A stretch of 64,000 bases of DNA from assembly GCA_963836205.1 (NCBI GenBank), contig CAWIIV010000006.1, positions 352,001-416,000 on the forward strand, written 5' to 3'. Source of the stretch: an uncultured Acidimicrobiia bacterium (GTDB lineage Bacteria; Actinomycetota; Acidimicrobiia; Acidimicrobiales; AC-14). Shown piece after piece: positions 41,986-64,000 of the stretch. Made by a program: the position numbers and the translations under genes. Within the stretch, counting starts at the first letter, position 1. The number at the start of each line of letters is the position of its first letter. The notes beneath the pieces were generated by a model, which was not told the DNA's origin, did no database searches, and saw only the letters and a list, made by a program, of their open reading frames with translations.

Positions 41986-43938
41986 TCAGGCAGCGGGGGA
42001 CGGGGCCTTGGCGATCTCGGCCAGGAACTCGTCGTTGCTCTTGGTGGTGCGGATCTTGTCCATCAACAACTCGAGGCCCGCTCCTGATTCCAGGCCGTTG
42101 AGCACCCGCCGCAGCTTCCAGATCTGCTGGAGCTGGCCCCGGTCGAAGAGCAGCTCCTCGTGGCGGGTGGAGGAGGCGTTGACCTCCAGCGCCGGGTAGA
42201 TGCGGCGCTCGGCCAGCTTGCGGTCGAGGCGCAGCTCCATGTTGCCGGTGCCCTTGAACTCCTCGAAGATGACCTCGTCCATCTTGGACCCGGTCTCGAT
42301 GAGGGCGGTGGCCAGGATGGTGAGGGAGCCGCCCTCCTCCAGGTTGCGGGCCGACCCGAAGAACTTCTTGGGCGGGTAGAGCGCGTCGGTGGCCAGGCCG
42401 CCCGACATGATGCGCCCGCTGGCGGGGGCGGCCAGGTTGTAGGCCCGGGCCAGGCGGGTGATCCCGTCGAGGACGATCACCACGTCGCGACCCATCTCCA
42501 CCAGCCGCTTGGCCCGCTCGGAGGCGAGCTCGGCCACCTGGGTGTGCTCGTCGGACGGGCGGTCGAAGGTGGATGCCACCACCTCGCCCTTCACCGACCG
42601 GCGCATGTCGGTGACCTCCTCCGGACGCTCGTCGACCAGCAGCACCATGAGGTGGACGTCGGGGTTGTTGGCCTCGATGGAGTGGGCGATCTGCTTGAGG
42701 ACGGTTGTCTTGCCCGCCTTGGGCGGCGAGACGATCAGGCCTCGCTGGCCCTTGCCGATGGGCGAGATGAGGTCGACGATGCGGGCGACCATGTTGTTGG
42801 AGTCGCCCGGGATCTCCAGCCGGAGCTTCTCGTCGGGGAACAGGGGGGTGAGGTCCTCGAAGCGGGGCCGGTTGCGGGCGTCCTCGACGGTCATGTCGTT
42901 CACCGTGTCGATGCGGAGCAGGGCCGGGTACTTCTCGGTGCTGCCCGCGGGCCGGGCCGCGCCCTTGATGACGTCGCCCTTGCGCAGGCCGAAGCGGCGG
43001 ACCTGGCTGAGCGACACGTAGACGTCACGCGCTCCGGCCAGGTAGCCGTTGGTGCGCAGGAAGCCGTAGCCCTCGTCGCGGAGGTCGAGGAGGCCGTCGG
43101 CGGGGACGGGCTCGCCCGAGTAGGCGACTTCCTGGCCGCCCTGACCCTGGACGCGGTCGGGCTGGAGCTCGCGCTCGCCCCGGTCGCGCCCCCGCCGGCG
43201 CCGGCTGCGACGGTTGCCGGGGTCGCCGGGAGGACCGTCGAACTGCTGCGACTGGTTGTTGCCCCCTCCCCCACGGGGGCTGTTGTTGTCGGTACGAGGG
43301 CCGCGGTCTTCCCGCGGGGCACGGTCCTCACGCGGGCCGCGGTCGCGCTGCTGGCGGTCACCGCCACCACCGCCGCCGCCGCCGCCACTCGAACCGCCGC
43401 CGCCACCCGAAGCGCCGCCGCCGGAGCTCCGGTCGGTGGCCGGGGCGGGGGTGGACGTGTCCGCCGTCTCGCCCTCGGAGGCCTCGGCCGCCGGCGCTTC
43501 GGCCGCGGACGCACTCGCGGCCGGGCGGGCCGCGTCGCCAGTGGCGGGGGCCGCCTCCGCCTCGGCCGTGCCGCCGAAGAGCGTGCCCCCGGCGTCGCCG
43601 TTGGCCGCGTTGTCGCCGGAGGATGGGACCGGGGCCGCGTCGGCCTGGCCCTCGGCCGCCGCCGTGGCGCCGTTGCCGGCGGGTGCGTCCGCCGGCGGAG
43701 CCGGGGGCGCGGCTGCCGCCGCGGCCGCGGACGCCTTGGTGGCGCGGGTGCGCCGGGGGCGTTCGGGTGCCTCGCTGCCGGTCTCGATCCCCGCTTGCCG
43801 GAGGATCGAGTCGATCAGGGTCGCCTTCGACGCCCGCGACGCGGGCTTGACGCCCATGGCCTCGGCGATGACGGCCAGTTCCTCGCGTTCCTTGCCCTCG
43901 AGAACGGATCGCTCGAGCGCCTGGGGCGCAATACTCAT
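41986..43938 (-). CDS. rho: Transcription termination factor Rho with actinobacterial N-terminal insertion
   Basis: [33 protein letters not shown] and FKGTGNME. Confidence 0.97.
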
Positions 43939-45113
43939 GGTGCCTCCCCGCTCGGTGCCATCAGGCACCGTGCGTGTTCGTCTGGTTGAAATGACTGGAT
44001 GAAGCGATGGGGGGGATTTCTTCCCCCTGGGCCCCCGGCAGGCGGGCGATGCCGTCGGTGCCGGAGGACGGGTGCGTAGCGGCTGTTTGCTCGGCACCCG
44101 CTTCGTTGAAACCGGGTTGCCCAGAACCGGGTTGCCCAGAACCGGGTTGCCCAGAACCGGGTTGCCCAGAACCGGGTGCCATGTGGCTCGGAACTGGTTT
44201 GTTCGGGGACGGCTCTGAACGCCTGGCCCACCACCAGGTCGATGACCTGCGACAACGTGGCGTCGAGGTTGTAGGACGGGACGATGGCCACGTTGTGCTG
44301 CAAGGCCAGCGACCGGACGTAGCGGTTGATCTTACGGATGTTCTTGAACGAGTCGAGGTAGCGCTCGGCGGGGCGGTTGCGGAAGTCGTGCGAACGCTGG
44401 AGGAAGTGGCTGCGGTGCAGCTCGGCCTCGTCGACCGTCACCACCATCGGTACCACCACCGCCTTGTCCTCGAAGCGGGCGAGGTCGAGAAACCCGGGGA
44501 CGACGTGGGCGCCCTCGATGATGAGGTCGGTACCCTCCGACACCGCCCGGCTGACCAGGGCCTCGATGCCGACGGCGACGGCCGACACCTGCTCGCGGAA
44601 GCCGATGATCACCGCGTCGGCGCTTCGGGGCAGGGGGTGGCGCACCAGGCGGGCGGCGTCGAACGACGAGGTGTGCAGGCTGGGAAAGAGGTCCTCGGTG
44701 AACATCGCCCGCATGACCTCCCGCACCGCGTCGGTGGGGATGACCCGGGTGATGCCCAGCCGGCTGGCCAGCATGGTGGCGATGGTGGACTTGCCCACGC
44801 CGGTGGCCCCGCCCAGCAGGATCACCAGCGGCAGGTCGAGGCGCTGCACCAGCTGCCACTTGGAGAACGACTCCGCGTAGCGTTCGCCCACCTCCGAGCG
44901 GAGGACCTCGTGGGCCAGTTGGTTGAGCTCGAGCTTGGAGATAGTGGCGACGCCCTGCTCGTCGAGGCGCTCCTCGATGACCTCGGCCACGTGGAAGGCG
45001 CGGCCCGGCGCGAGCCCGGTGGCCATGATGGCGGAGGCCATGAGTCCCTTGGAGTACGGAAACTCGTACTCCCGGTCTCCCACGACCATGTGGCGGGACG
45101 CCACTGCTTTCAC
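43935..45113 (-). CDS. pgk2: 2-phosphoglycerate kinase (ATP-cone plus P-loop), with a long C-terminal extension
   Basis: PYSKGLMA ATP-cone, GGATGVGKST, TDAVREVMR, LHTSSF and IIEGAHVVP. Confidence 0.85.
   Translation of the reverse strand: MKAVASRHMVVGDREYEFPYSKGLMASAIMATGLAPGRAFHVAEVIEERLDEQGVATISKLELNQLAHEVLRSEVGERYAESFSKWQLVQRLDLPLVILLGGATGVGKSTIATMLASRLGITRVIPTDAVREVMRAMFTEDLFPSLHTSSFDAARLVRHPLPRSADAVIIGFREQVSAVAVGIEALVSRAVSEGTDLIIEGAHVVPGFLDLARFEDKAVVVPMVVTVDEAELHRSHFLQRSHDFRNRPAERYLDSFKNIRKINRYVRSLALQHNVAIVPSYNLDATLSQVIDLVVGQAFRAVPEQTSSEPHGTRFWATRFWATRFWATRFWATRFQRSGCRANSRYAPVLRHRRHRPPAGGPGGRNPPHRFIQSFQPDEHARCLMAPSGEAP
44111..44177. repeat. 15-bp tandem repeat ACCGGGTTGCCCAGA, four perfect copies plus a partial copy
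   Basis: Directly visible; reads (RFWAT)n in the kinase frame. Confidence 0.95.
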
Positions 45114-45200
45114 GATTGTCCCTGTGCCTTCGGCAGCCGGACCGACAGGGGTGTCAGTTGGGTGCCAGTTGAGATGCTGGTTGATGTGTCGTGTACTGCA

Positions 45201-45324
45201 CGATTCCCGTCAGGACGATTGCCGTCAGTGCGATTCCCGTCAGGACGATGCGTCAGTGCGATTGCCGTCAGTGCGATTGCGGTCAGGGCGATTGCGGTCA
45301 GGGCGATTGCCGTCAGGGCGATGA
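45201..45324. repeat. About eight imperfect 15-bp tandem repeats CGATTGCCGTCAGKG covering the cpgS stop
   Basis: Directly visible; each unit carries TGA on the minus strand. Confidence 0.9.
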
Positions 45325-46710
45325 CGAGAAGCGCTCGACGGCCAGGTCGGCTATCCCGACAGCCAGGTCGTCGAACGTGCCGTCACCCCCGGTGGATACA
45401 ACTCGGTTGTCGCAAAACGTGATCTCCATTCCTCGCCCCAGCGCTGTTTTCGCTGCGAGGTCCACCGCCGCCGCTTTCAACTCCACCAGCAGGACATCGG
45501 CTGCGGGTGCCGTCGCCAGGTCGGCCGCCAACTCGGGCCGGCGAGCCAGGTGGTGGGAAACCCCGACCACGGTGCATCCGTGTGCTTGTTCGAGGTGGTC
45601 CACCAACACCTTGCTGGCGGACGCCGGCGCGGTGGTGACAAAGAAGACCCGGCGACCAGAAATCGGTTCGAGGGGAAAGGGCCGAAACACGGTGTGGACA
45701 ACCCGGACCCCAGGCACCAACTTCCGGACGCTTTCCTCAAGGAACCCAGAACCCGAGCTCGCGGTGCTGGTTCCCGTCGGAACGCCGGCGCCCCAGACGG
45801 GGAACGATGGCTCCACCATGGTAACCACAATCAGATCGCTCAGCAACAACCGGTAGGCACCGAGATACCCCGTGACCAACTCCGGATCGACGGACGCCGG
45901 CATCACGCAGATGGTGGCGTCGGCGTGGACCGGTGGAACCGAGGCTCCGCTTCCCTCGAACACCAGCAACCGCTCGGATCTTCCCTCGGCCGCGGCCACG
46001 CCTGCGGCGAAGGTGCTGGAGAACGGCGCCCCCGCCAGGCCCCCGCCGCAGCGACGGGTGCCGACAGTGGCCACACCGGCCACCAGGGCGTCCTCCAGGT
46101 GGTCGGACGCGGCGTGGCGGCCGGACGCGGCGAGGGCGACGAGGCCGGCGGCGGACAGGTCGAACGACGCAGGGTCGACCACCTCCGGCTCCGGCGGGCC
46201 GCCCCGGCCCATGGCCACCACCACCGGCGGGGTGCCCCGGGCCGCCAGGAGCCGGGCCAGGGAGGCCGACACCGCCGTCTTGCCGGTGCGCTTGCCGGTG
46301 CCGATGACGGCGATCGACGGCTTGGTCGCGATGCGGGGGCGGGGCGGCGGGTCGAACCGGAAGTCGGCCCCCAGGTAGGGGATGCCGGCCACGAGCGTGC
46401 GGGCGGCGAGTCCCATGCGCTGGCGGGCGTCGACCACAGGCTCGTCCGACAGGTCGACGACGAGGTCGGGGGCGAAGCGGTCGAGGCCGGCCCGGAGGGC
46501 GCCCACCAGGCCGTCGCCCCGCACCACGGGAATGCCCAGGCCCAGGTCGGCGGCCGGGTCGGCGGCCAGCTTCTCCCCCCCGCCCAGCAGGACGGCGCCC
46601 ACCACCTCGGCGCCGGGGATGCGTTCGGGAAGCTGGGCGATGGCGGCCCGCACGACGGGCGGGTAGTGCTCGCCGTCGATCAGGACAAGAGTCCGCAATT
46701 CGCTACTCAT
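45313..46710 (-). CDS. cpgS: Cyclic 2,3-diphosphoglycerate synthetase
   Basis: LIDGEHYPPVV, DLSDEPV, IGTGKRTGKTAVS, MGRGGP, HAASD, RRCGGG, EGSG and ELKAAAVD; about 465 aa, like archaeal cDPGS. Confidence 0.88.
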   Translation of the reverse strand: MSSELRTLVLIDGEHYPPVVRAAIAQLPERIPGAEVVGAVLLGGGEKLAADPAADLGLGIPVVRGDGLVGALRAGLDRFAPDLVVDLSDEPVVDARQRMGLAARTLVAGIPYLGADFRFDPPPRPRIATKPSIAVIGTGKRTGKTAVSASLARLLAARGTPPVVVAMGRGGPPEPEVVDPASFDLSAAGLVALAASGRHAASDHLEDALVAGVATVGTRRCGGGLAGAPFSSTFAAGVAAAEGRSERLLVFEGSGASVPPVHADATICVMPASVDPELVTGYLGAYRLLLSDLIVVTMVEPSFPVWGAGVPTGTSTASSGSGFLEESVRKLVPGVRVVHTVFRPFPLEPISGRRVFFVTTAPASASKVLVDHLEQAHGCTVVGVSHHLARRPELAADLATAPAADVLLVELKAAAVDLAAKTALGRGMEITFCDNRVVSTGGDGTFDDLAVGIADLAVERFSSSP

Positions 46711-46736
46711 CTCGGGCCGAGCCCGGGCTCAGGGGG

Positions 46737-47894
46737 TCAGGCGTTCGGCGCCCGTCCCACCAGCCGGCTCATGAGCCGGTGGCCGGGAACGGGGGTTGCG
46801 GTGGCGGTGCCCGCTTCGCTGTAGGTGCCGCCGGGGCCGTCGACGGCGGAGTCGACGAGCAGGTAGGGGACGGAGTCCGACGTGTGGGTGCGGAGGGCGA
46901 CCGGTGTCGGATGGTCGGGCAGGAGCAGCAGCCGCCACGGGCCGAGGGCGTCGAGGCCCTCGACCAGGGGGCCGATGATGCGCCGGTCCCAGTTCTCCAG
47001 GGCCTCGATCTTGGCCTCGAGGTTGCCGGCGTGGCCGGCTTCGTCGCTGGCCTCCACGTGGATGAGGAACAGGTCGTCGCCGGCGGCCAGGGCTTCCAGG
47101 CAGGCGTCGCGCTTGCCCTCGTAGTTGGTGTCGTACCAGCCGGTGATGCCCTCCACCTCGGCCGCGGGGATGCCGGTGAGGGCGCCCAGGCCCCGGATGA
47201 GGTCGACGGCCGACACCAGCCCGGCCCGCAGGCCGTAGGCGTCCTCGAACGAGGGCAGGACCGGCTGCGGCCCCTGCCCCCACAGCCAGATCTGGGTGGC
47301 CTCGAGGTCGGAGGGGCCCACGATGGCCCGGGATGCGTCCATCAGGGCCTGGAGCTTCGGCGCGGCGGGGCCGGTGGGCCACACCGCGGGCTTGCCGGTG
47401 AGGTCGTGGGGCGGGAAGCAGTCGGCGTCGGCCCACGTATCGGGCGTGACGAGGATGTGGCGGTACTGCACGCCGGGGTGGAACGTGATCTCGTCGGTGC
47501 CGAGCTCGGCCTGGAGGGTGGCGACGACGGCCGCCGCCTCCTCGGTGGACGGGTGGCCGCCGGAGAAGTCGACCATGGTGCCGTCGTCGCTGACGGTGGC
47601 CAGGTTGCACCGGTAGGCGATCTGGTCGGGGCGCAGGCGCAGGCCCATGGCCGCGGCCTCGATGGGCGCCCGCCCGGTGTGGTGGACGGCGGGGTCGTAG
47701 CCGAGGATCGACAGGTTGCCCACGTCGCTGCCCGGCGGCATGCCCGCGGGGATCGTCGCCGCCCGCCCCACCTCGGCCCGGGCCGCCAGCTTGGCCAGGT
47801 GCGGCATGTGGGCCACTTCCAACGGCGTGCGCCCCCCGAGCTCGGGAATCGGGTCGTCGGCCGCCCCGTCGGGAACACACACCACGTACTTCAT
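46737..47894 (-). CDS. apgM: Cofactor-independent phosphoglycerate mutase, ApgM family (proposed homoserine-kinase subfamily)
   Basis: DGAAD, GRTPLE, PGSDVGNLSILGYDP, GRAPIEAA, HVEASDEAGH and PDHPTP...THT. Confidence 0.88.
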   Translation of the reverse strand: MKYVVCVPDGAADDPIPELGGRTPLEVAHMPHLAKLAARAEVGRAATIPAGMPPGSDVGNLSILGYDPAVHHTGRAPIEAAAMGLRLRPDQIAYRCNLATVSDDGTMVDFSGGHPSTEEAAAVVATLQAELGTDEITFHPGVQYRHILVTPDTWADADCFPPHDLTGKPAVWPTGPAAPKLQALMDASRAIVGPSDLEATQIWLWGQGPQPVLPSFEDAYGLRAGLVSAVDLIRGLGALTGIPAAEVEGITGWYDTNYEGKRDACLEALAAGDDLFLIHVEASDEAGHAGNLEAKIEALENWDRRIIGPLVEGLDALGPWRLLLLPDHPTPVALRTHTSDSVPYLLVDSAVDGPGGTYSEAGTATATPVPGHRLMSRLVGRAPNA

Positions 47895-47946
47895 GGCCCG
47901 GATCGTAACCGGGAGGGTCGCCGCAACCTGCGTCTCCCCCTACGGT

Positions 47947-48039
47947 TTCGTGCGCTCGAATCGTGGTGATCCGGGGCCGGATCGGCCATTTCACGACGTT
48001 CTGCGTGATCCGAATGTTCGGCGACGCGAGATCGTCGTG
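47947..48039. repeat. One partial and one full copy of the 38.8-kb palindromic element
   Basis: TTCGTGCGCTCGAATCGTGGTGA, then TCACGAC-GTTCTGC-GTGATCCGAATG...ATCGTCGTG. Confidence 0.7.
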
Positions 48040-48104
48040 GGCCACGGCGGCGGGGCGGCCGGCGACCCCTGGCGGGCGGCCAGCGTCGGTACGCTCGGGC
48101 GGCG

Positions 48105-49348
48105 ATGGCTCTCCGCCGGCTGACCGTCTTCCTCGTCGCCTCCGCGTTGGCCCTCGTGGGCACCGCCTGCGGCGGCGAAGACGACGACGCCCCGCCCTCC
48201 GCCACCACGGCCACCACGACCGCGCCCGTCGGGCCCCGACTCCACCGGCGCCCCGCCCGACGCCGACCACCACCTCCCCGCAGCCGCAGCCGGGCCCCCA
48301 GCCGCTCGACTCGATCTCGTTGCAGCTGACCGAGGTGGCCGACCTTTCCCAGCCCGTCGACATGGCCGTGCGGGCGGGTGACGCCCGGCTCTACGTGGTG
48401 GAGAAGGTCGGGAGGGTCCGGGCCGTGGGCGATGGCGGGGTGGCCGGCACCGTCCTCGACCTCACCGGGCAGGTTTCCACCGGCAGCGAGCAGGGCCTGC
48501 TCGGGCTGGCCTTCTCCCCCGACGGCGGCCACCTCTACGTCAACTACACCGACACCTCGGGCGACACCCGCATCGTGGAGTACGCCTTCTCCGGCGACCG
48601 GGCCGACCCGTCCACCGCCCGGGAGCTGCTCAGGATCGACCAGCCCTACGCCAACCACAACGGTGGCGACATCGTCTTCGGCCCCGACGGAAACCTGTGG
48701 ATCGCGATGGGCGACGGTGGCAGCGGCAACGATCCCGAGAACCGGGCCCAGAACCTCGGCACCCTCCTCGGCAAGCTGCTGCGCATCGACCCCGTCCCCT
48801 CCGGCGGGCAGCCCTACACGATCCCGTCCGGCAACCCCTTCGTGGGCCGGGACGGGCCCCGGCGCGAGATCTGGGCCTACGGGCTGCGCAACCCGTGGCG
48901 GTTCTCCTTCGACCGGGAGACCGGCGACCTGTGGATGGGCGACGTCGGCCAGAACGCGGTGGAGGAGGTCGACTTCGCCCCCGCCTCGTCGACGGGGGGT
49001 GAGAACTACGGCTGGCCCGGGATGGAGGGCACCCGGTCGAACAAGGGCGGTCGCCCCGCGGGCGCGGTCGACCCGATCCTCGACTACCGCCAGTCCGACG
49101 GGGGCTGCTCCGTCGTCGGCGGCTACGTCTACCGCGGGACGGCGATTCCGGCCCTGGCCGGCGCCTACCTCTACGGCGACTACTGCGCGGGCGACGTCCT
49201 CGCCCTCCGCCAGTCGGGCGGCACCGTCACCGAGCAGGCCGACCTCGGCCTCGACGTCGCCAGCCTGTCGTCCTTCGGCCAGGACGGGGCCGGGGAGCTC
49301 TACGCCCTGTCCCTCGACGGCCCGCTGTACCGAATCGACCCCGCCTAG
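48105..49348 (+). CDS. PQQ-dependent sugar (glucose/sorbosone) dehydrogenase family lipoprotein; frameshift near 48230
   Basis: The lipoprotein leader (VGTAC) is in a different frame from the catalytic part (EQGLLGLAF, NHNGG, GLRNPWR, DVGQ). Confidence 0.85.
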
Positions 49349-49365
49349 AGAGCACCCGCTGTTCA

Positions 49366-49406
49366 TGGGCACGAAAAGGGGCGTCTGGCACCCCTTTGCA
49401 TGCCCA
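49366..49406. terminator. Imperfect inverted repeat between convergent genes
   Basis: TGGGCA..AAAGGGG / CCCCTTT..TGCCCA. Confidence 0.55.
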
Positions 49407-49426
49407 CGGACCGTCGTGCGACGCGG

Positions 49427-50476
49427 CTACAGCCCCAGTTCGGCCCGCACCGCGCCGATGTCGGCGTCGACCGGAGAGGGCACCGCGATCTCGGCGATGG
49501 CGCGGTCGGGGTCCTTCAGGCCGTGGCCGGTGAGCGTGCACACCACCGTCCGCACCCCGTCGCCCACGCCCACCTTCAACAGCCCGGCCACCGACGCGGC
49601 CGACGCCGGCTCGCAGAACACCGACTCGGTCGAGGCCAGGAAGCGGTAGGCGTCGAGGATCTCCTCGTCGGTCACGGCGTGGATACCGCCGCCCGACTCC
49701 GACGCGGCCGCCGTGGCCCCATACCACGAGGCCGGGTTGCCGATGCGGATGGCGGTGGCGATGGTGTCGGGGTTGTCGACGACGTGGCCGAGGACGATGG
49801 GCGCCGCCCCCGCGGCCTGGAACCCGAACATGGCCGGCAGCTTGGTGGACTTCCCGGCGTCCTGGTACTCCCGGAAGCCCTTCCAGTAGGCGGAGATGTT
49901 GCCGGCGTTGCCCACCGGCACGCAGTGCATGTCGGGCGCGTCCCCCAACACGTCGACGATCTCGAAGGCGGCCGTCTTCTGGCCGTCGATCCGGTAGGGG
50001 TTGATGGAGTTGACGATGGTGACGGGCGCCGTCTCGCCCAGGGCCCGGACCACGTCGAGGGCCTGGTCGAAGTTGCCCCGCACCTGGAGGACCCGGGCCC
50101 CGTGGATGAGGGCCTGGGCCAGCTTGCCCAGGGCGATGTAGCCCTCCGGGATGAGAACCGCGCAGGTCAGGCCGGCCCGGGTGGAGTAGGCCGCGGCCGA
50201 GGCCGACGTGTTGCCGGTGGACGCGCACACCACCGCCTTGGCCCCGTCCTCCACCGCCTTGGAGATGGCCAGCGTCATGCCCCGGTCCTTGAACGAGCCG
50301 GTGGGGTTGGCCCCCTCCACCTTGAGCCACACCTCCGCACCCACCCGCTCCGACAACCGGGGGGCGGGCACCAGCGGGGTCGCCCCCTCCAGGAGGGTGA
50401 TGACGGGCGTGGCCGTCGTGACCGGCAGGTACTCCCGGTACTCCTCGATCAACCCTCGCCAGCCGGGTCGCGCCAT
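49427..50476 (-). CDS. thrC: Threonine synthase
   Basis: [28 protein letters not shown] and TGHGLKD. Confidence 0.97.
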
Positions 50477-50480
50477 CCCG

Positions 50481-51788
50481 TTATTCGGGCCCGATGACCC
50501 GGAGGAGCGAGCCCACCCGGTCGACGACGTCGAGCTCCCGCAGGTCGGCCACCGTGGCCTGCATCGCCTTCTCCCGGGCGGTGTGGGTGACCAGCATCAG
50601 CCGGGCCTCGTCGCCCATCCCCAGCTGGAGGACCTGGACGATCGACACCTCGTGGCGGGAGAAGGCGTGGGCCACCCGTTCGAGCACGCCCGGCTTGTCG
50701 GCCACGTCGAGGGACAGGTAGTACTGCGATGCCAGCTCGTCCATGGGGCGCAACCGGGCGGTGGCCAGGCCCGCGACTCCGGCGGATGCCGACGTGCCCT
50801 GGCGGCGGTTGGCGGCGGCGTCGACCACGTCGCCCAGGACGGCCGACGCGGTGGGCCGCCCGCCGGCGCCCCGTCCGTAGAACATCAGCTCGCCCGCGGC
50901 CTCGCCCTGCACGAACACCGCGTTGTAGGCCTCCCGCACCGCGGCCAGGGGATGGTCGACCGGGACCATGGCCGGGTGGACCCGTACCGACACCTGGTCG
51001 CCGCCCGAGCCGGGTACCGAGTCGGCCACCGCCAGCAGCTTGACCACGTAGCCCAGGCGGGCGGCCATGGCGATGTCGACGGTGGTGACGCCGGTGATGC
51101 CCTCCCGGTAGACGTCGTCGGCCCGGACGTCGATGCCGAAGGCGACGCTGGCGATGATGGCGGCCTTGGCCGCGGCGTCGAAGCCCTCGACGTCGGCCGT
51201 GGGATCGCGCTCGGCGTAGCCCAGGGCCTGGGCCTCGGCCAGGGCGTCGGCGAAGGAGTCGCCCCCCTCGGTCATGCGGGTGAGGATGAAGTTGGTGGTG
51301 CCGTTGACGATGCCGATGACCCGGTTGATGCGGTCGCCGGCGAGGGACTCCCGCAGCGGCCGCATGAGGGGGATGGCGCCGCAGACGGCGGCCTCGAACA
51401 GCAGGTCGACGCCCGACTTCACCGCCGCGTCGAACAGCTCGGCGCCGTGGGTGGCGAGCAGCTCCTTGTTGGCGGTGACCACCGGCTTGCCGGCCTCGAG
51501 GGCGGTGAGGATGAGGGTGCGGGCCGGCTCGACGCCGCCCATGACCTCCACCACCAGGTCGACGTCGGGGTCGGCGACCACTCCGGCGGCATCGGCGGTG
51601 AGGATCCCGGGCGCGAGGTCGACTCCCCGGGGGCGGGTGACGTCGTTCACCGCCACCCGGGCGATCTCCAGCCGCAGCCCGGTGCGAGCCTCCACCGCGT
51701 CGCCGTTGTCGGCCACCAGCTGCACCAGCGCGGCCCCGACGTTGCCGCAGCCCAGGAGCCCGATGCGGACCGTGGCGTTGCCGTTCAT
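50481..51788 (-). CDS. hom: Homoserine dehydrogenase with ACT domain
   Basis: [26 protein letters not shown] and DKPGVL; ATG 51788. Confidence 0.96.
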
Positions 51789-51799
51789 GGCCCCCAACG

Positions 51800-53074
51800 C
51801 TACTGGTCGAGGCGAAGGAGGTCGGCCGTCGTCTCCCGCCGAACCACCTCCCGGACCACCCCGTCGCGGACGAAGACCACCGCCGGCCGGGGCACCTTGT
51901 TGTAGTTGGACGCCATTGCATGCCCGTAGGCGCCGGTCACAGGGGTGCAGATGATGTCGCCGACAGCCAGGTCGGCCGGGACCTGGGCGTCGCGCACCAC
52001 CACGTCGCCCGACTCGCAGTGCTTGCCCACCACCGTGACGGTGCGGGGACGGGCGGCGTCGGTGGCCCGGGGCAGGAAGGCCTCGTAACCGCTGCCGTAG
52101 AGCACGGGCCGGGGGTTGTCGCTCATGCCCCCGTCGACGGCCACGTAGGTGCGCACGCCGGGGACGTCCTTCACCGTGCCGACCCTGTAGAGGGTGAGGC
52201 CGCCGGCAGCGGCGATGGCCCGTCCCGGCTCGGCCGTGACCCGGGACGCGATCCCCGCGGCCAGGCACGCCTCCTGGAGCACCTTGGCCCACTGGCTGAT
52301 CGTGGGCGCGTCCTCGCCGTCGACGTAGGCCACGCCCAGGCCCCCGCCCAGGCACAGCTCGGGCAGCCCGAGGGGGGCCACGAAGTCGGCCAGCACCTCC
52401 ACCGCCTTCTCGAACGAGTGGAGCAGGAAGATCTGGCTGCCGATGTGGGCGTGCACGCCCACCAGCTCGAACGCGGGCGAGTCGGCGATGCGGTCGACGG
52501 CGAGGGCGGCGTCGCCGCTGGCCAGGCCGAATCCGAACTTGGAGTCGACCTGGCCGGTCATGACGTACTCGTGGGTGTGGGCCTCGACGCCCGGCGTCAC
52601 CCGCACCATCACCCGGGTGGGACGGCCGTCGTCGGCGTGGATCGCCTCCAGCCGGCGGATCTCGTCGAACGAGTCGACCACCACCTTGACGCCGAGGTGG
52701 TGGGCACGGGACAGCTCGTCGTACGACTTGTTGTTGCCGTGGAGGACGATCCGATCGGACGGCACGCCTGCGGTGAGGGCCACGTGCAGCTCGCCGCCGG
52801 TGGCCACGTCGACGTGCATGCCCTCCTCGTGGACGAGCCGGGCCATGGCCAGGCAGAGGAAGGCCTTCGACCCGTAGGCCACGCCGTCGCCGAACGAGGC
52901 CACCGCCTCCCGGCAGCGGGCCCGCAGGTGCTCCTCGTCGTAGACGAACAGGGGCGTGCCGACCTCGTCGGCCAGGGAGACCAGGTCGACGCCACCCACG
53001 CGGAGCCCGCCGCCGGGGCCGACGGTGGCGGTGTCGGGCAGGAGGTGGCGGGGAAGGGGGCCAACCCCGATCAC
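51800..53074 (-). CDS. lysA: Diaminopimelate decarboxylase
   Basis: YGSKAF, HGNNKS, HIGSQI, EPGR, CESGD and GAYG. Confidence 0.96.
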   Translation of the reverse strand: MIGVGPLPRHLLPDTATVGPGGGLRVGGVDLVSLADEVGTPLFVYDEEHLRARCREAVASFGDGVAYGSKAFLCLAMARLVHEEGMHVDVATGGELHVALTAGVPSDRIVLHGNNKSYDELSRAHHLGVKVVVDSFDEIRRLEAIHADDGRPTRVMVRVTPGVEAHTHEYVMTGQVDSKFGFGLASGDAALAVDRIADSPAFELVGVHAHIGSQIFLLHSFEKAVEVLADFVAPLGLPELCLGGGLGVAYVDGEDAPTISQWAKVLQEACLAAGIASRVTAEPGRAIAAAGGLTLYRVGTVKDVPGVRTYVAVDGGMSDNPRPVLYGSGYEAFLPRATDAARPRTVTVVGKHCESGDVVVRDAQVPADLAVGDIICTPVTGAYGHAMASNYNKVPRPAVVFVRDGVVREVVRRETTADLLRLDQ

Positions 53075-59940: not shown

Positions 59941-60119
59941 GGTACCCCCGACCCCACCGACCTCATGCCCGACGGTCGAACTCCTCGCCGGGACGACGCC
60001 AGCCGAGGGGTGTCCGGCCGTCGCCGGTCATGACGTCGGCCCGCGCCGTGGTCCGGCGTGGCCACCTCGCCGACGTGGGCCTTTCGTCGGGACGGGTCCG
60101 TCGGGCATGATGACCGGCC

Positions 60120-64000
<3,881 letters not shown>

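Follow-up and report, generated by a model that had tools for sequence, protein, structure and literature searches.

The 64,000-nucleotide stretch analysed here (the window) is part of contig CAWIIV010000006.1 from an uncultured Acidimicrobiia bacterium (GenBank assembly GCA_963836205.1). It appears to carry a two-gene module for cyclic 2,3-diphosphoglycerate (cDPG), made up of homologues of cDPG synthetase (cpgS) and 2-phosphoglycerate kinase (2pgk), beside a separate gene for HomK, an alternative homoserine kinase. Going by sequence, we consider this reading of the whole locus probable, with real room for doubt. A previous sequence-only reading had described a self-contained cassette leading from 3-phosphoglycerate (3-PG) through 2-phosphoglycerate (2-PG) and 2,3-diphosphoglycerate (2,3-DPG) to cDPG, with an ApgM-type phosphoglycerate mutase as its first enzyme. 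Because the 'ApgM' protein is most likely not the supplier of 2-PG, we describe a two-gene module between the thr operon and rho and not a three-gene cassette. The three genes are co-oriented, as that reading had them, and their open reading frames (ORFs) have a third-codon-position GC content (GC3) of 0.85–0.96, the bias of real genes:

46737-47894, minus strand: HomK-like ApgM-family gene, ORF of 385 amino acids
45313-46710, minus strand: cDPG synthetase homologue (cpgS), ORF of 465 amino acids
43935-45113, minus strand: 2-phosphoglycerate kinase homologue (2pgk), ORF of 392 amino acids

The gene at 45313-46710 is, on sequence grounds, that of a cDPG synthetase homologue with its ligand residues intact. 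Its product matches the Methanothermus fervidus synthetase (PDB 8ORK/8ORU; phmmer E 1.6e-96) from query residue 6 to 463 against chain residues 6 to 458, a match that extends over the unique N-terminal dimerisation domain of that enzyme, and a third synthetase entry, 9SXB, at E 7.3e-87 (phmmer). The two proteins have equal length and the same two-domain layout. The motifs quoted in the sequence-only reading all lie in this middle protein (DGEHYP at residue 12, GTGKRTGKT at 137, MGRGGP at 167 and RRCGGG at 219); the P-loop, GTGKRTGKT, reads GTGKRIGKT in M. fervidus. Our local copies of Pfam-A and NCBIfam gave no match, and the family was placed through the PDB sequences. Databases hold the homologues under the precomputed family PF27272 with the name 'cyclic 2,3-diphosphoglycerate synthetase' (JGI, NCBI), so that the earlier supposition of already catalogued bacterial homologues was right; 7996 of 8000 scored database candidates lie at E<=1e-10.

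In the M. fervidus enzyme, 2,3-DPG is held by E45 and K46 of the partner subunit and by K145 and R146, its charge is shielded by K149 and K406, Mg is coordinated by T150 and D208, and ADP is held by E305, P335, T353 and E404 (De Rose et al., 2023, PMC10690619, in excerpt). Eleven of 11 published ligand residues checked (E45, K46, K145, R146, K149, T150, D208, E305, T353, E404 and K406) are kept in the window protein, as E46, K47, K140, R141, K144, T145, D203, E300, T360, E410 and K412, which bears out the assignment to this family. P335 maps to no proline by a count of chain numbering; the surrounding FRPxP is conserved. We extended the survey to related bacterial loci, 148 of 160 of which were usable (12 short, split or stop-containing sequences were dropped). 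Among the resulting 149 sequences, window included, nine of the 11 positions show no variation; of the other two, the E305 equivalent is a Glu in 124 sequences and the T353 equivalent a Thr in 145.

The gene at 43935-45113 encodes a homologue of 2-phosphoglycerate kinase, with that activity predicted from its family membership. Its two best NCBIfam families are both 2-phosphoglycerate kinase models: NF003259 (298.7 bits, E 5.1e-89, model positions 4-296 of 306) and NF008994 (291.7 bits, positions 180-476 of 492, the kinase part). The mevalonate-3-phosphate 5-kinase model NF008996 scores 94.6 bits. A P-loop, GGATGVGKS, stands at residue 101 within AAA-type Pfam matches at residues 90-232, and no other protein of the window's genome matches the 2PGK family. 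With the methanogen family (NF003259/PRK04220), to which the M. fervidus enzyme belongs, the window kinase shares the P-loop and the end-to-end model match; it differs in its score below the cut-off, in a C-terminal tail that contains a repeat and in an ATGA overlap with rho. The catalytic part spans about residues 7-304, and a tail of 88 amino acids continues to the rho start. Two close relatives (L006 and L009) end in the same way after a tail of 25 amino acids that lacks the 15-bp repeat; the longer tail of the window kinase includes a perfect 15-bp repeat array. In another related locus (L007:7473-8249), the kinase match ends at residue 160 and the frame then becomes ribosomal protein S15-like, probably through an assembly join or a rearrangement.

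Linkage of the two genes is widespread. We searched the 80 best cpgS loci from genome contigs with the window proteins (tblastn), and counted adjacency only where a locus offered 1 kb or more of flank on the side in question. A synteny survey across Actinomycetota had been proposed with the sequence-only reading; in ours, 76 of 78 loci have 2pgk as the next gene downstream of cpgS. The two genes overlap in L006, L009 and L010, and overlap or abut in L008. Outside Actinomycetota they are linked in all 19 Thermoplasmatota loci and in several bacterial phyla. The arrangement outside Actinomycetota is cpgS-2pgk-phosphoesterase, which 16 of the 19 Thermoplasmatota loci show, for instance, and among loci L176-L249 it occurs in Thermoplasmatota, Asgard archaea, Eubacteriales, Brocadiia and others. 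Of 25 loci from Methanobacteriota, the sole group with biochemical data, 24 carry cpgS by itself, unlike the window. The Rubrobacteraceae loci (L095-L174) read phosphoesterase-cpgS-rho, with 2pgk at the locus in 0 of 74; an unlinked 2pgk above the cut-off (scores 352-386) is present in five of five genomes. In G011, for example, the two genes lie far apart, 2pgk at 54 kb and cpgS at 957 kb. An ApgM-family gene stands upstream of cpgS, on the opposite strand, in two Thermoproteota loci.

Several points weigh against a functional cDPG pair. The kinase stays below the curated cut-offs (298.7 against 343 bits for NF003259; 603 for NF008994), and a PDB sequence search found no solved relative of it. 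cDPG is said to occur exclusively in hyperthermophilic methanogens (De Rose et al., 2023, PMC10690619, in excerpt), and full-text open-access PMC and bioRxiv yielded no paper on bacterial cpgS/2pgk or on bacterial cDPG; two papers on ammonia-oxidising archaea, in the passages retrieved, refer to the gene solely as a marker of thermophily. The same facts could mean that the two proteins act on another substrate or stop at 2,3-DPG, with no cDPG pool and with a product that perhaps regulates at a low level or donates phosphoryl groups. The carriers are not thermophiles, and the 2PGK superfamily does include enzymes for other substrates, such as the NF008996 kinase. We think this unlikely. E45, K46, K145, R146, K149, T150, D208 and K406 are invariant in 149 of 149 bacterial synthetases, and the linkage of kinase and synthetase persists across Actinomycetota as well as in other phyla of both domains. 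In our reading the cDPG synthesis pair is real and probably functional, and the earlier 2-phosphoglycerate kinase assignment is supported. We describe the pair as an apparently old and common feature of Actinomycetota, an already annotated bacterial group, with its activity predicted from sequence.

The gene at 46737-47894 probably encodes HomK, an alternative homoserine kinase/phosphotransferase of the thr operon, and most likely not the enzyme that supplies 2-PG. The ApgM part of the earlier description stands: the protein matches PhosphMutase/Metalloenzyme (Pfam) and the apgM-type NCBIfam models, and it keeps both its catalytic serine and its metal ligands (D9, S56, D284, H288, D327, H328 and H337), as well as E281. 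It shares serine and ligands with the ApgM mutases of known structure (PDB 3IDD, 3KD8 and 2ZKT; E ~1e-41), which belong to the same superfamily but have lysine where the window protein has Glu281. The mutase part is not supported, given this exchange, the position of the gene in the slot of thrB and a separate mutase gene on contig C7.

A glutamate where mutases have lysine is the mark of HomK (E299 of BT2402) in the available part of the GapMind 2026 preprint (10.1101/2024.10.14.618325), which also reports that BT2402 of Bacteroides thetaiotaomicron and DET_RS08350 of Dehalococcoides mccartyi rescue an Escherichia coli thrB mutant. In our alignment, the residue at Glu281 is Glu in all 10 HomK-like proteins (the window and nine related loci) and Lys in all five mutase paralogues. 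Eleven columns separate the two groups with no variation inside either, and this is the only Glu/Lys switch among them. The motif here is HVEASD in the window against HHKSPD, HIKGPD or HLKGPD in the five paralogues, and the solved Thermoplasma acidophilum mutase (3IDD), as aligned, has NIKATD. By numbering, Glu281 would correspond to E299: D327 and H328 are set against D346 and H347 of BT2402, and the resulting offset of +19 would put E299 near residue 280-281. For D9 and S56 the numbers agree between the two proteins. The window protein has in common with HomK/ThrB2, as far as the preprint excerpt describes it, the ApgM-family fold signature, D9, S56 and, should this numbering be right, a Glu at the proposed specificity position.

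The genome gives a similar picture. It has 72% GC, a size of 4.05 Mb in 25 contigs (the window lies on C6) and a completeness of 88.6%. No match to thrB was found in it. A second ApgM-family gene, on contig C7, passes the mutase equivalog NF003160 (523 against a cut-off of 468) and reaches only 161 with TIGR02535, the model named 'proposed homoserine kinase'; no gpmA or gpmI was found above cut-off in this genome. The C7 paralogue is the candidate for the real mutase. The same argument (no thrB, a position near hom/thrC and a second, more distant mutase) is made for DET_RS08350 in the excerpted preprint. Here hom and thrC lie 1.5-4 kb upstream of the HomK-like gene on the same strand. The surroundings, with the tandem repeats, are as follows:

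50481-51830, minus strand: hom, homoserine dehydrogenase with ACT domain (PF00742, E 1.4e-67, with PF03447 and PF01842)
49427-50476, minus strand: thrC, threonine synthase, PALP family (Pfam PF00291, E 8.4e-70)
47963-49348, plus strand: glucose/sorbosone dehydrogenase-like gene (Pfam PF07995, E 3.3e-42), between thrC and the HomK-like gene
45201-45322, no strand: 15-bp tandem repeat, 8.3 copies, 85% match, starting at the cpgS stop codon
44110-44177, no strand: perfect 15-bp tandem repeat, 4.5 copies, in frame in the C-terminal tail of the kinase, with TRFWA repeated
41986-43938, minus strand: rho, with Rho_RNA_bind and ATP-synt_ab domains

The wider setting is a run of minus-strand housekeeping genes, with argS, lysA, hom and thrC upstream and rho, prfA, prmC and sua5 downstream, and the sequence-only reading had rightly placed the locus in an actinobacterial cluster of this kind. 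The dehydrogenase-like gene on the opposite strand occurs at the equivalent spot in eight close relatives (between thrC and the HomK-like gene in L005-L009, L014 and L016; the L008 locus begins inside it). The N-terminal third of rho (43000-43800) is of low complexity, with several short tandem DNA repeats (units of 9-24 bp), like that of other high-GC Actinomycetota. Elsewhere in the window, on the plus strand at 60114-63569, an ORF of 1151 amino acids with a GC3 of 0.94 has no Pfam match at E<=1e-5.

Not everything about this gene points to HomK. With TIGR02535 it scores 428.7, short of the cut-off of 446.3, and with NF003242, 'cofactor-independent phosphoglycerate mutase', it passes (439.2 against 426), so the NCBI pipeline would name it a mutase. 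BT2402 ligands D274, H278 and H325, by their numbers in the excerpted preprint, do not fit the offset of +19. At a completeness of 88.6%, the absence of thrB from the genome is not proven. The HomK-like gene lies only 26 nt from cpgS, with the opposite-strand gene between it and thrC, and some functional tie to the cDPG genes is conceivable, given probable co-transcription. This layout, with cpgS abutting the gene and an opposite-strand gene before thrC, also sets it apart from the two HomK proteins named above, and its function here is predicted from sequence. For the family models, the score with TIGR02535 is nevertheless higher than that with the apgM model TIGR00306 (413.2; cut-off 320), and a shortfall on TIGR02535 is shared with DET_RS08350, an experimentally confirmed HomK that the excerpted preprint reports as not classified under that model.

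The arrangement of related loci supports the slot argument. Among the 80 loci of the tblastn survey, 49, mostly titled Gaiellaceae, have phosphoesterase-cpgS-2pgk in a locus where neither thr genes nor rho were detected; eight have thrC-thrB-(phosphoesterase)-cpgS-2pgk-rho; eight, all close relatives of the window, have (thrC)-HomK-like-cpgS-2pgk-(rho); one (L022) has a HomK-like gene, two glycoside-related genes and then phosphoesterase-cpgS-2pgk-rho; and the remaining 14 are smaller variants. In a Pfam check, six of the ThrB genes proved to encode GHMP-kinase domains, and four of the genes upstream of cpgS the calcineurin-like phosphoesterase domain PF00149. Since ThrB and the ApgM-like protein are both encoded between thrC and the cDPG genes, they are alternatives in one slot. 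In L022, a hot-spring Actinomycetota metagenome-assembled genome, the inserted genes (L022:1739-5998) are for a GT4 glycosyltransferase and a GDE/mannosylglycerate-hydrolase-like protein, which hints at a compatible-solute neighbourhood.

The phosphoesterase directly precedes cpgS in 62 of 77 loci. In the window's genome its orthologue is unlinked (G000:C15:425090-425854; L091:6073-6945) and 44-61% identical to the L034 protein. It is flanked by a gpsA-containing ORF and a protein kinase and, directly downstream, by a cofC/fbiD-like guanylyltransferase gene (F420 synthesis). All five close relatives checked also have the phosphoesterase copy elsewhere in the genome. Particular to the window are the HomK gene adjoining the pair, the relocated phosphoesterase and the repeat arrays that flank the kinase.

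HomK-like and ThrB proteins largely replace each other in a sample of 41 genomes of the window's order (ThrB at E<=1e-20, HomK-like at E<=1e-95), which is separate from the phylum sample described below. ThrB was found in 27 and the HomK-like protein in 11; nine of these 11 have no ThrB, and 25 of the 30 genomes without the HomK-like protein do have it. Against this, two of the 11 also match ThrB and five of the 41 genomes have neither. Of the two double carriers, one genome is 80% complete and its HomK is a fragment at the end of a contig, and the other has a weak partial ThrB match. We make no statistical claim for the complementarity because related genomes are not independent. Among close relatives, thrB exceeds its cut-off in none of five genomes with the HomK-like arrangement. 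Genomes with the ThrB arrangement give 193-241 bits with TIGR02535 in four of five cases and no match in the fifth, which is the level of mutases. cpgS was found in four genomes of the order sample, two with the HomK-like protein (G000 and G438) and two with ThrB (G412 and G419); nine of the 11 HomK-like genomes lack it.

These counts bear on the reading of the three genes as one pathway, in which the ApgM-like enzyme would feed 3-PG as 2-PG to kinase and synthetase. The protein does belong to the ApgM family and passes both TIGR00306 and NF003242, its gene is just upstream of cpgS on the same strand, and the adjacency is retained in the eight close relatives and in G438, a genome of the same family. 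We nonetheless hold the one-pathway reading to be very improbable. Glu281 replaces the lysine found in the five paralogues and the T. acidophilum mutase; the genome gives no thrB match and contains a further mutase that clears its equivalog cut-off; a classic ThrB occupies the slot in eight other loci; a phosphoesterase, and not the ApgM-like gene, is the usual upstream neighbour of cpgS; and most HomK-like genomes of the order are without cpgS. The self-contained cassette of the sequence-only reading is not upheld: its first gene sits in the thrB slot, and two of the four cpgS carriers in the order sample have ThrB instead.

We surveyed 401 Actinomycetota genomes for cpgS (E<=1e-20); 14 of them are unpublished and all 14 are positive. 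cpgS was found in 229 of the 401 (215 of 387 without the unpublished genomes) and the HomK-like gene in 89. Family counts vary in both directions: the HomK-like gene and cpgS are present, respectively, in 5 and 0 of 5 genomes of family f2, 0 and 26 of 26 of f15, 0 and 31 of 31 of f25 and 25 and 28 of 28 of f27. We infer that f25 is Rubrobacteraceae: the synthetase of its member G011 retrieved 80 loci, most titled Rubrobacter, Rubrobacteraceae or Rubrobacterales and none of another family. Within the window's own class cpgS is patchy. It is absent from all 22 other genomes of the window's order in this sample (families f2-f8), and G238 is the single same-class genome listed as positive. The HomK-like gene and the cDPG genes each occur without the other.

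This distribution speaks to a coupling in which HomK would take its phosphate from the 2,3-DPG (or cDPG) of the neighbouring kinase, so that kinase and HomK together would amount to an ATP-dependent homoserine kinase. Phosphoglycerates are named as obvious donor candidates for HomK in the excerpted preprint (10.1101/2024.10.14.618325), the window gene is close to cpgS and has an opposite-strand gene between it and thrC, and many other Actinomycetota have HomK-like genes on the same strand as cpgS, 1-5 kb upstream of it. According to an argument in the same preprint, Glu299 favours a donor with a positive charge. HomK-like genes are present and cpgS is absent in f2 and in nine of the 11 order-sample genomes that have such a gene; Bacteroides thetaiotaomicron, which has a tested HomK, gave no 2PGK-family match among our control genomes; and since an ATP-dependent ThrB fills the slot in eight loci, the neighbourhood predates HomK. 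We regard such a coupling as the least probable of the readings considered here, with hardly any chance of being right, and an obligate coupling of HomK and cDPG was rejected on the distribution of HomK-like genes, cpgS and 2PGK.

We built a FastTree phylogeny of the synthetase with 114 rows: the window, 39 loci of the first set (Gaiellaceae-like loci were reduced to 10 picked at random), six random Rubrobacteraceae and 68 full-length loci out of 74 new ones. The new loci come from a search with the L018 protein, a query nearer to the archaeal enzyme (464 bits to 8ORK), which retrieved 75 loci from Thermoplasmatota, Methanobacteriota, Hadarchaeota, Asgard archaea, Thermoproteota and several bacterial phyla. 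Forty-three Actinomycetota rows and the window fall on one side of a branch (SH-like support 95), apart from all archaeal rows, and rows of Eubacteriales and Aminicenantes nest among Thermoplasmatota. The tree, built without a mixture model and flagged by the program for long branches and uneven composition, is indicative only; as such it agrees with an old presence of cpgS in Actinomycetota. 'Archaeal-type', as the cassette had been called, is therefore a misleading label for sequences that stand apart from every archaeal row. A recent transfer of cpgS from archaea was rejected, as the Actinomycetota rows form one side of the branch.

The genes from homK to rho may form one transcript (homK-cpgS-2pgk-rho). 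The gap between the HomK-like gene and cpgS is 26 nt, that between cpgS and 2pgk is 199 nt, mostly repeat array, and 2pgk and rho overlap: the rho ATG (43938-43936) shares ATGA with the kinase TGA, and in our reading of the sequence a ribosome-binding site, GGGGAGG, precedes it. Because it is so close to cpgS and cut off from thrC, the HomK-like gene is probably co-transcribed with the cDPG genes. A promoter scan of 43500-50600 gave 0 promoter-like sites, and a terminator scan of the same region gave 4 sites against 2.3 +/- 1.6 expected, all within coding sequence; both are uninformative. A search of sequencing runs turned up no RNA run containing the stretch, and the best DNA run contained 0.20 of the sampled words. 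Early copies of the 15-bp unit at 45201-45322 each repeat the TGA of the cpgS stop, and a relative that is 91% identical has an unrelated 17-bp unit in 5.2 copies at the equivalent spot (L005:7395-7482). The minisatellite at the cpgS stop has the look of a hypervariable spacer interrupting what was ancestrally a translational coupling.

Taken as a two-gene module beside HomK, the locus would work as follows. The kinase would phosphorylate 2-PG with ATP to 2,3-DPG, the route of M. fervidus, and the synthetase would spend a second ATP on closing the intramolecular phosphoanhydride of cDPG by a two-step phosphoryl transfer, as proposed for the M. fervidus enzyme. The 2-PG would come from ordinary glycolysis through the ApgM-type mutase on C7. 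HomK would replace ThrB, providing O-phosphohomoserine for ThrC through a phospho-Ser56 intermediate as part of the lysA-hom-thrC cluster. The slot of the module, with the thr genes on one side and rho on the other, would be old and conserved, and from it the clade of the window would have lost the usual neighbour, a metallophosphoesterase, to another contig, leaving HomK to touch cpgS. The look of a three-gene cassette would be due to this move.

The role of cDPG in such a host is a guess. Record titles point to soil and groundwater metagenomes, the source also of the window's bacterium, and not to hyperthermophiles such as the methanogen M. fervidus, which makes heat protection an unlikely role. 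DNA sequencing runs listed with small shares of the stretch point to the same habitats, although no habitat claim rests on them. A phosphate or energy reserve is one guess, and protection against desiccation or oxidative stress is another; cDPG is cited as protecting DNA from hydroxyl radicals and scavenging superoxide (introduction of a 2025 preprint, in excerpt). We tentatively put forward, as a possibility we lean slightly against, that mesophilic, deep-branching members of the Actinomycetota (Acidimicrobiia, Gaiellaceae, Rubrobacteraceae and Coriobacteriia) commonly have cDPG as a metabolite, made by cpgS-2pgk, broken down by the phosphoesterase that accompanies the pair in both domains and serving as a phosphate/energy buffer or as a desiccation or oxidative protectant. 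In the clade of the window the parts of this system would be scattered, with the phosphoesterase beside fbiD elsewhere in the genome and the synthesis genes wired to homK and rho.

For annotation, the locus is a warning that an 'ApgM' beside glycerate-phosphate enzymes need not belong to their pathway. The HomK family is still named phosphoglycerate mutase by standard pipelines, and the 'ApgM' of the window is probably the HomK of the threonine pathway. Among the carriers of cpgS are cultured Rubrobacter. If the carriers make cDPG, the view of this compound as exclusive to hyperthermophilic methanogens would be overturned, and the question would open of what cDPG does at ordinary temperatures.

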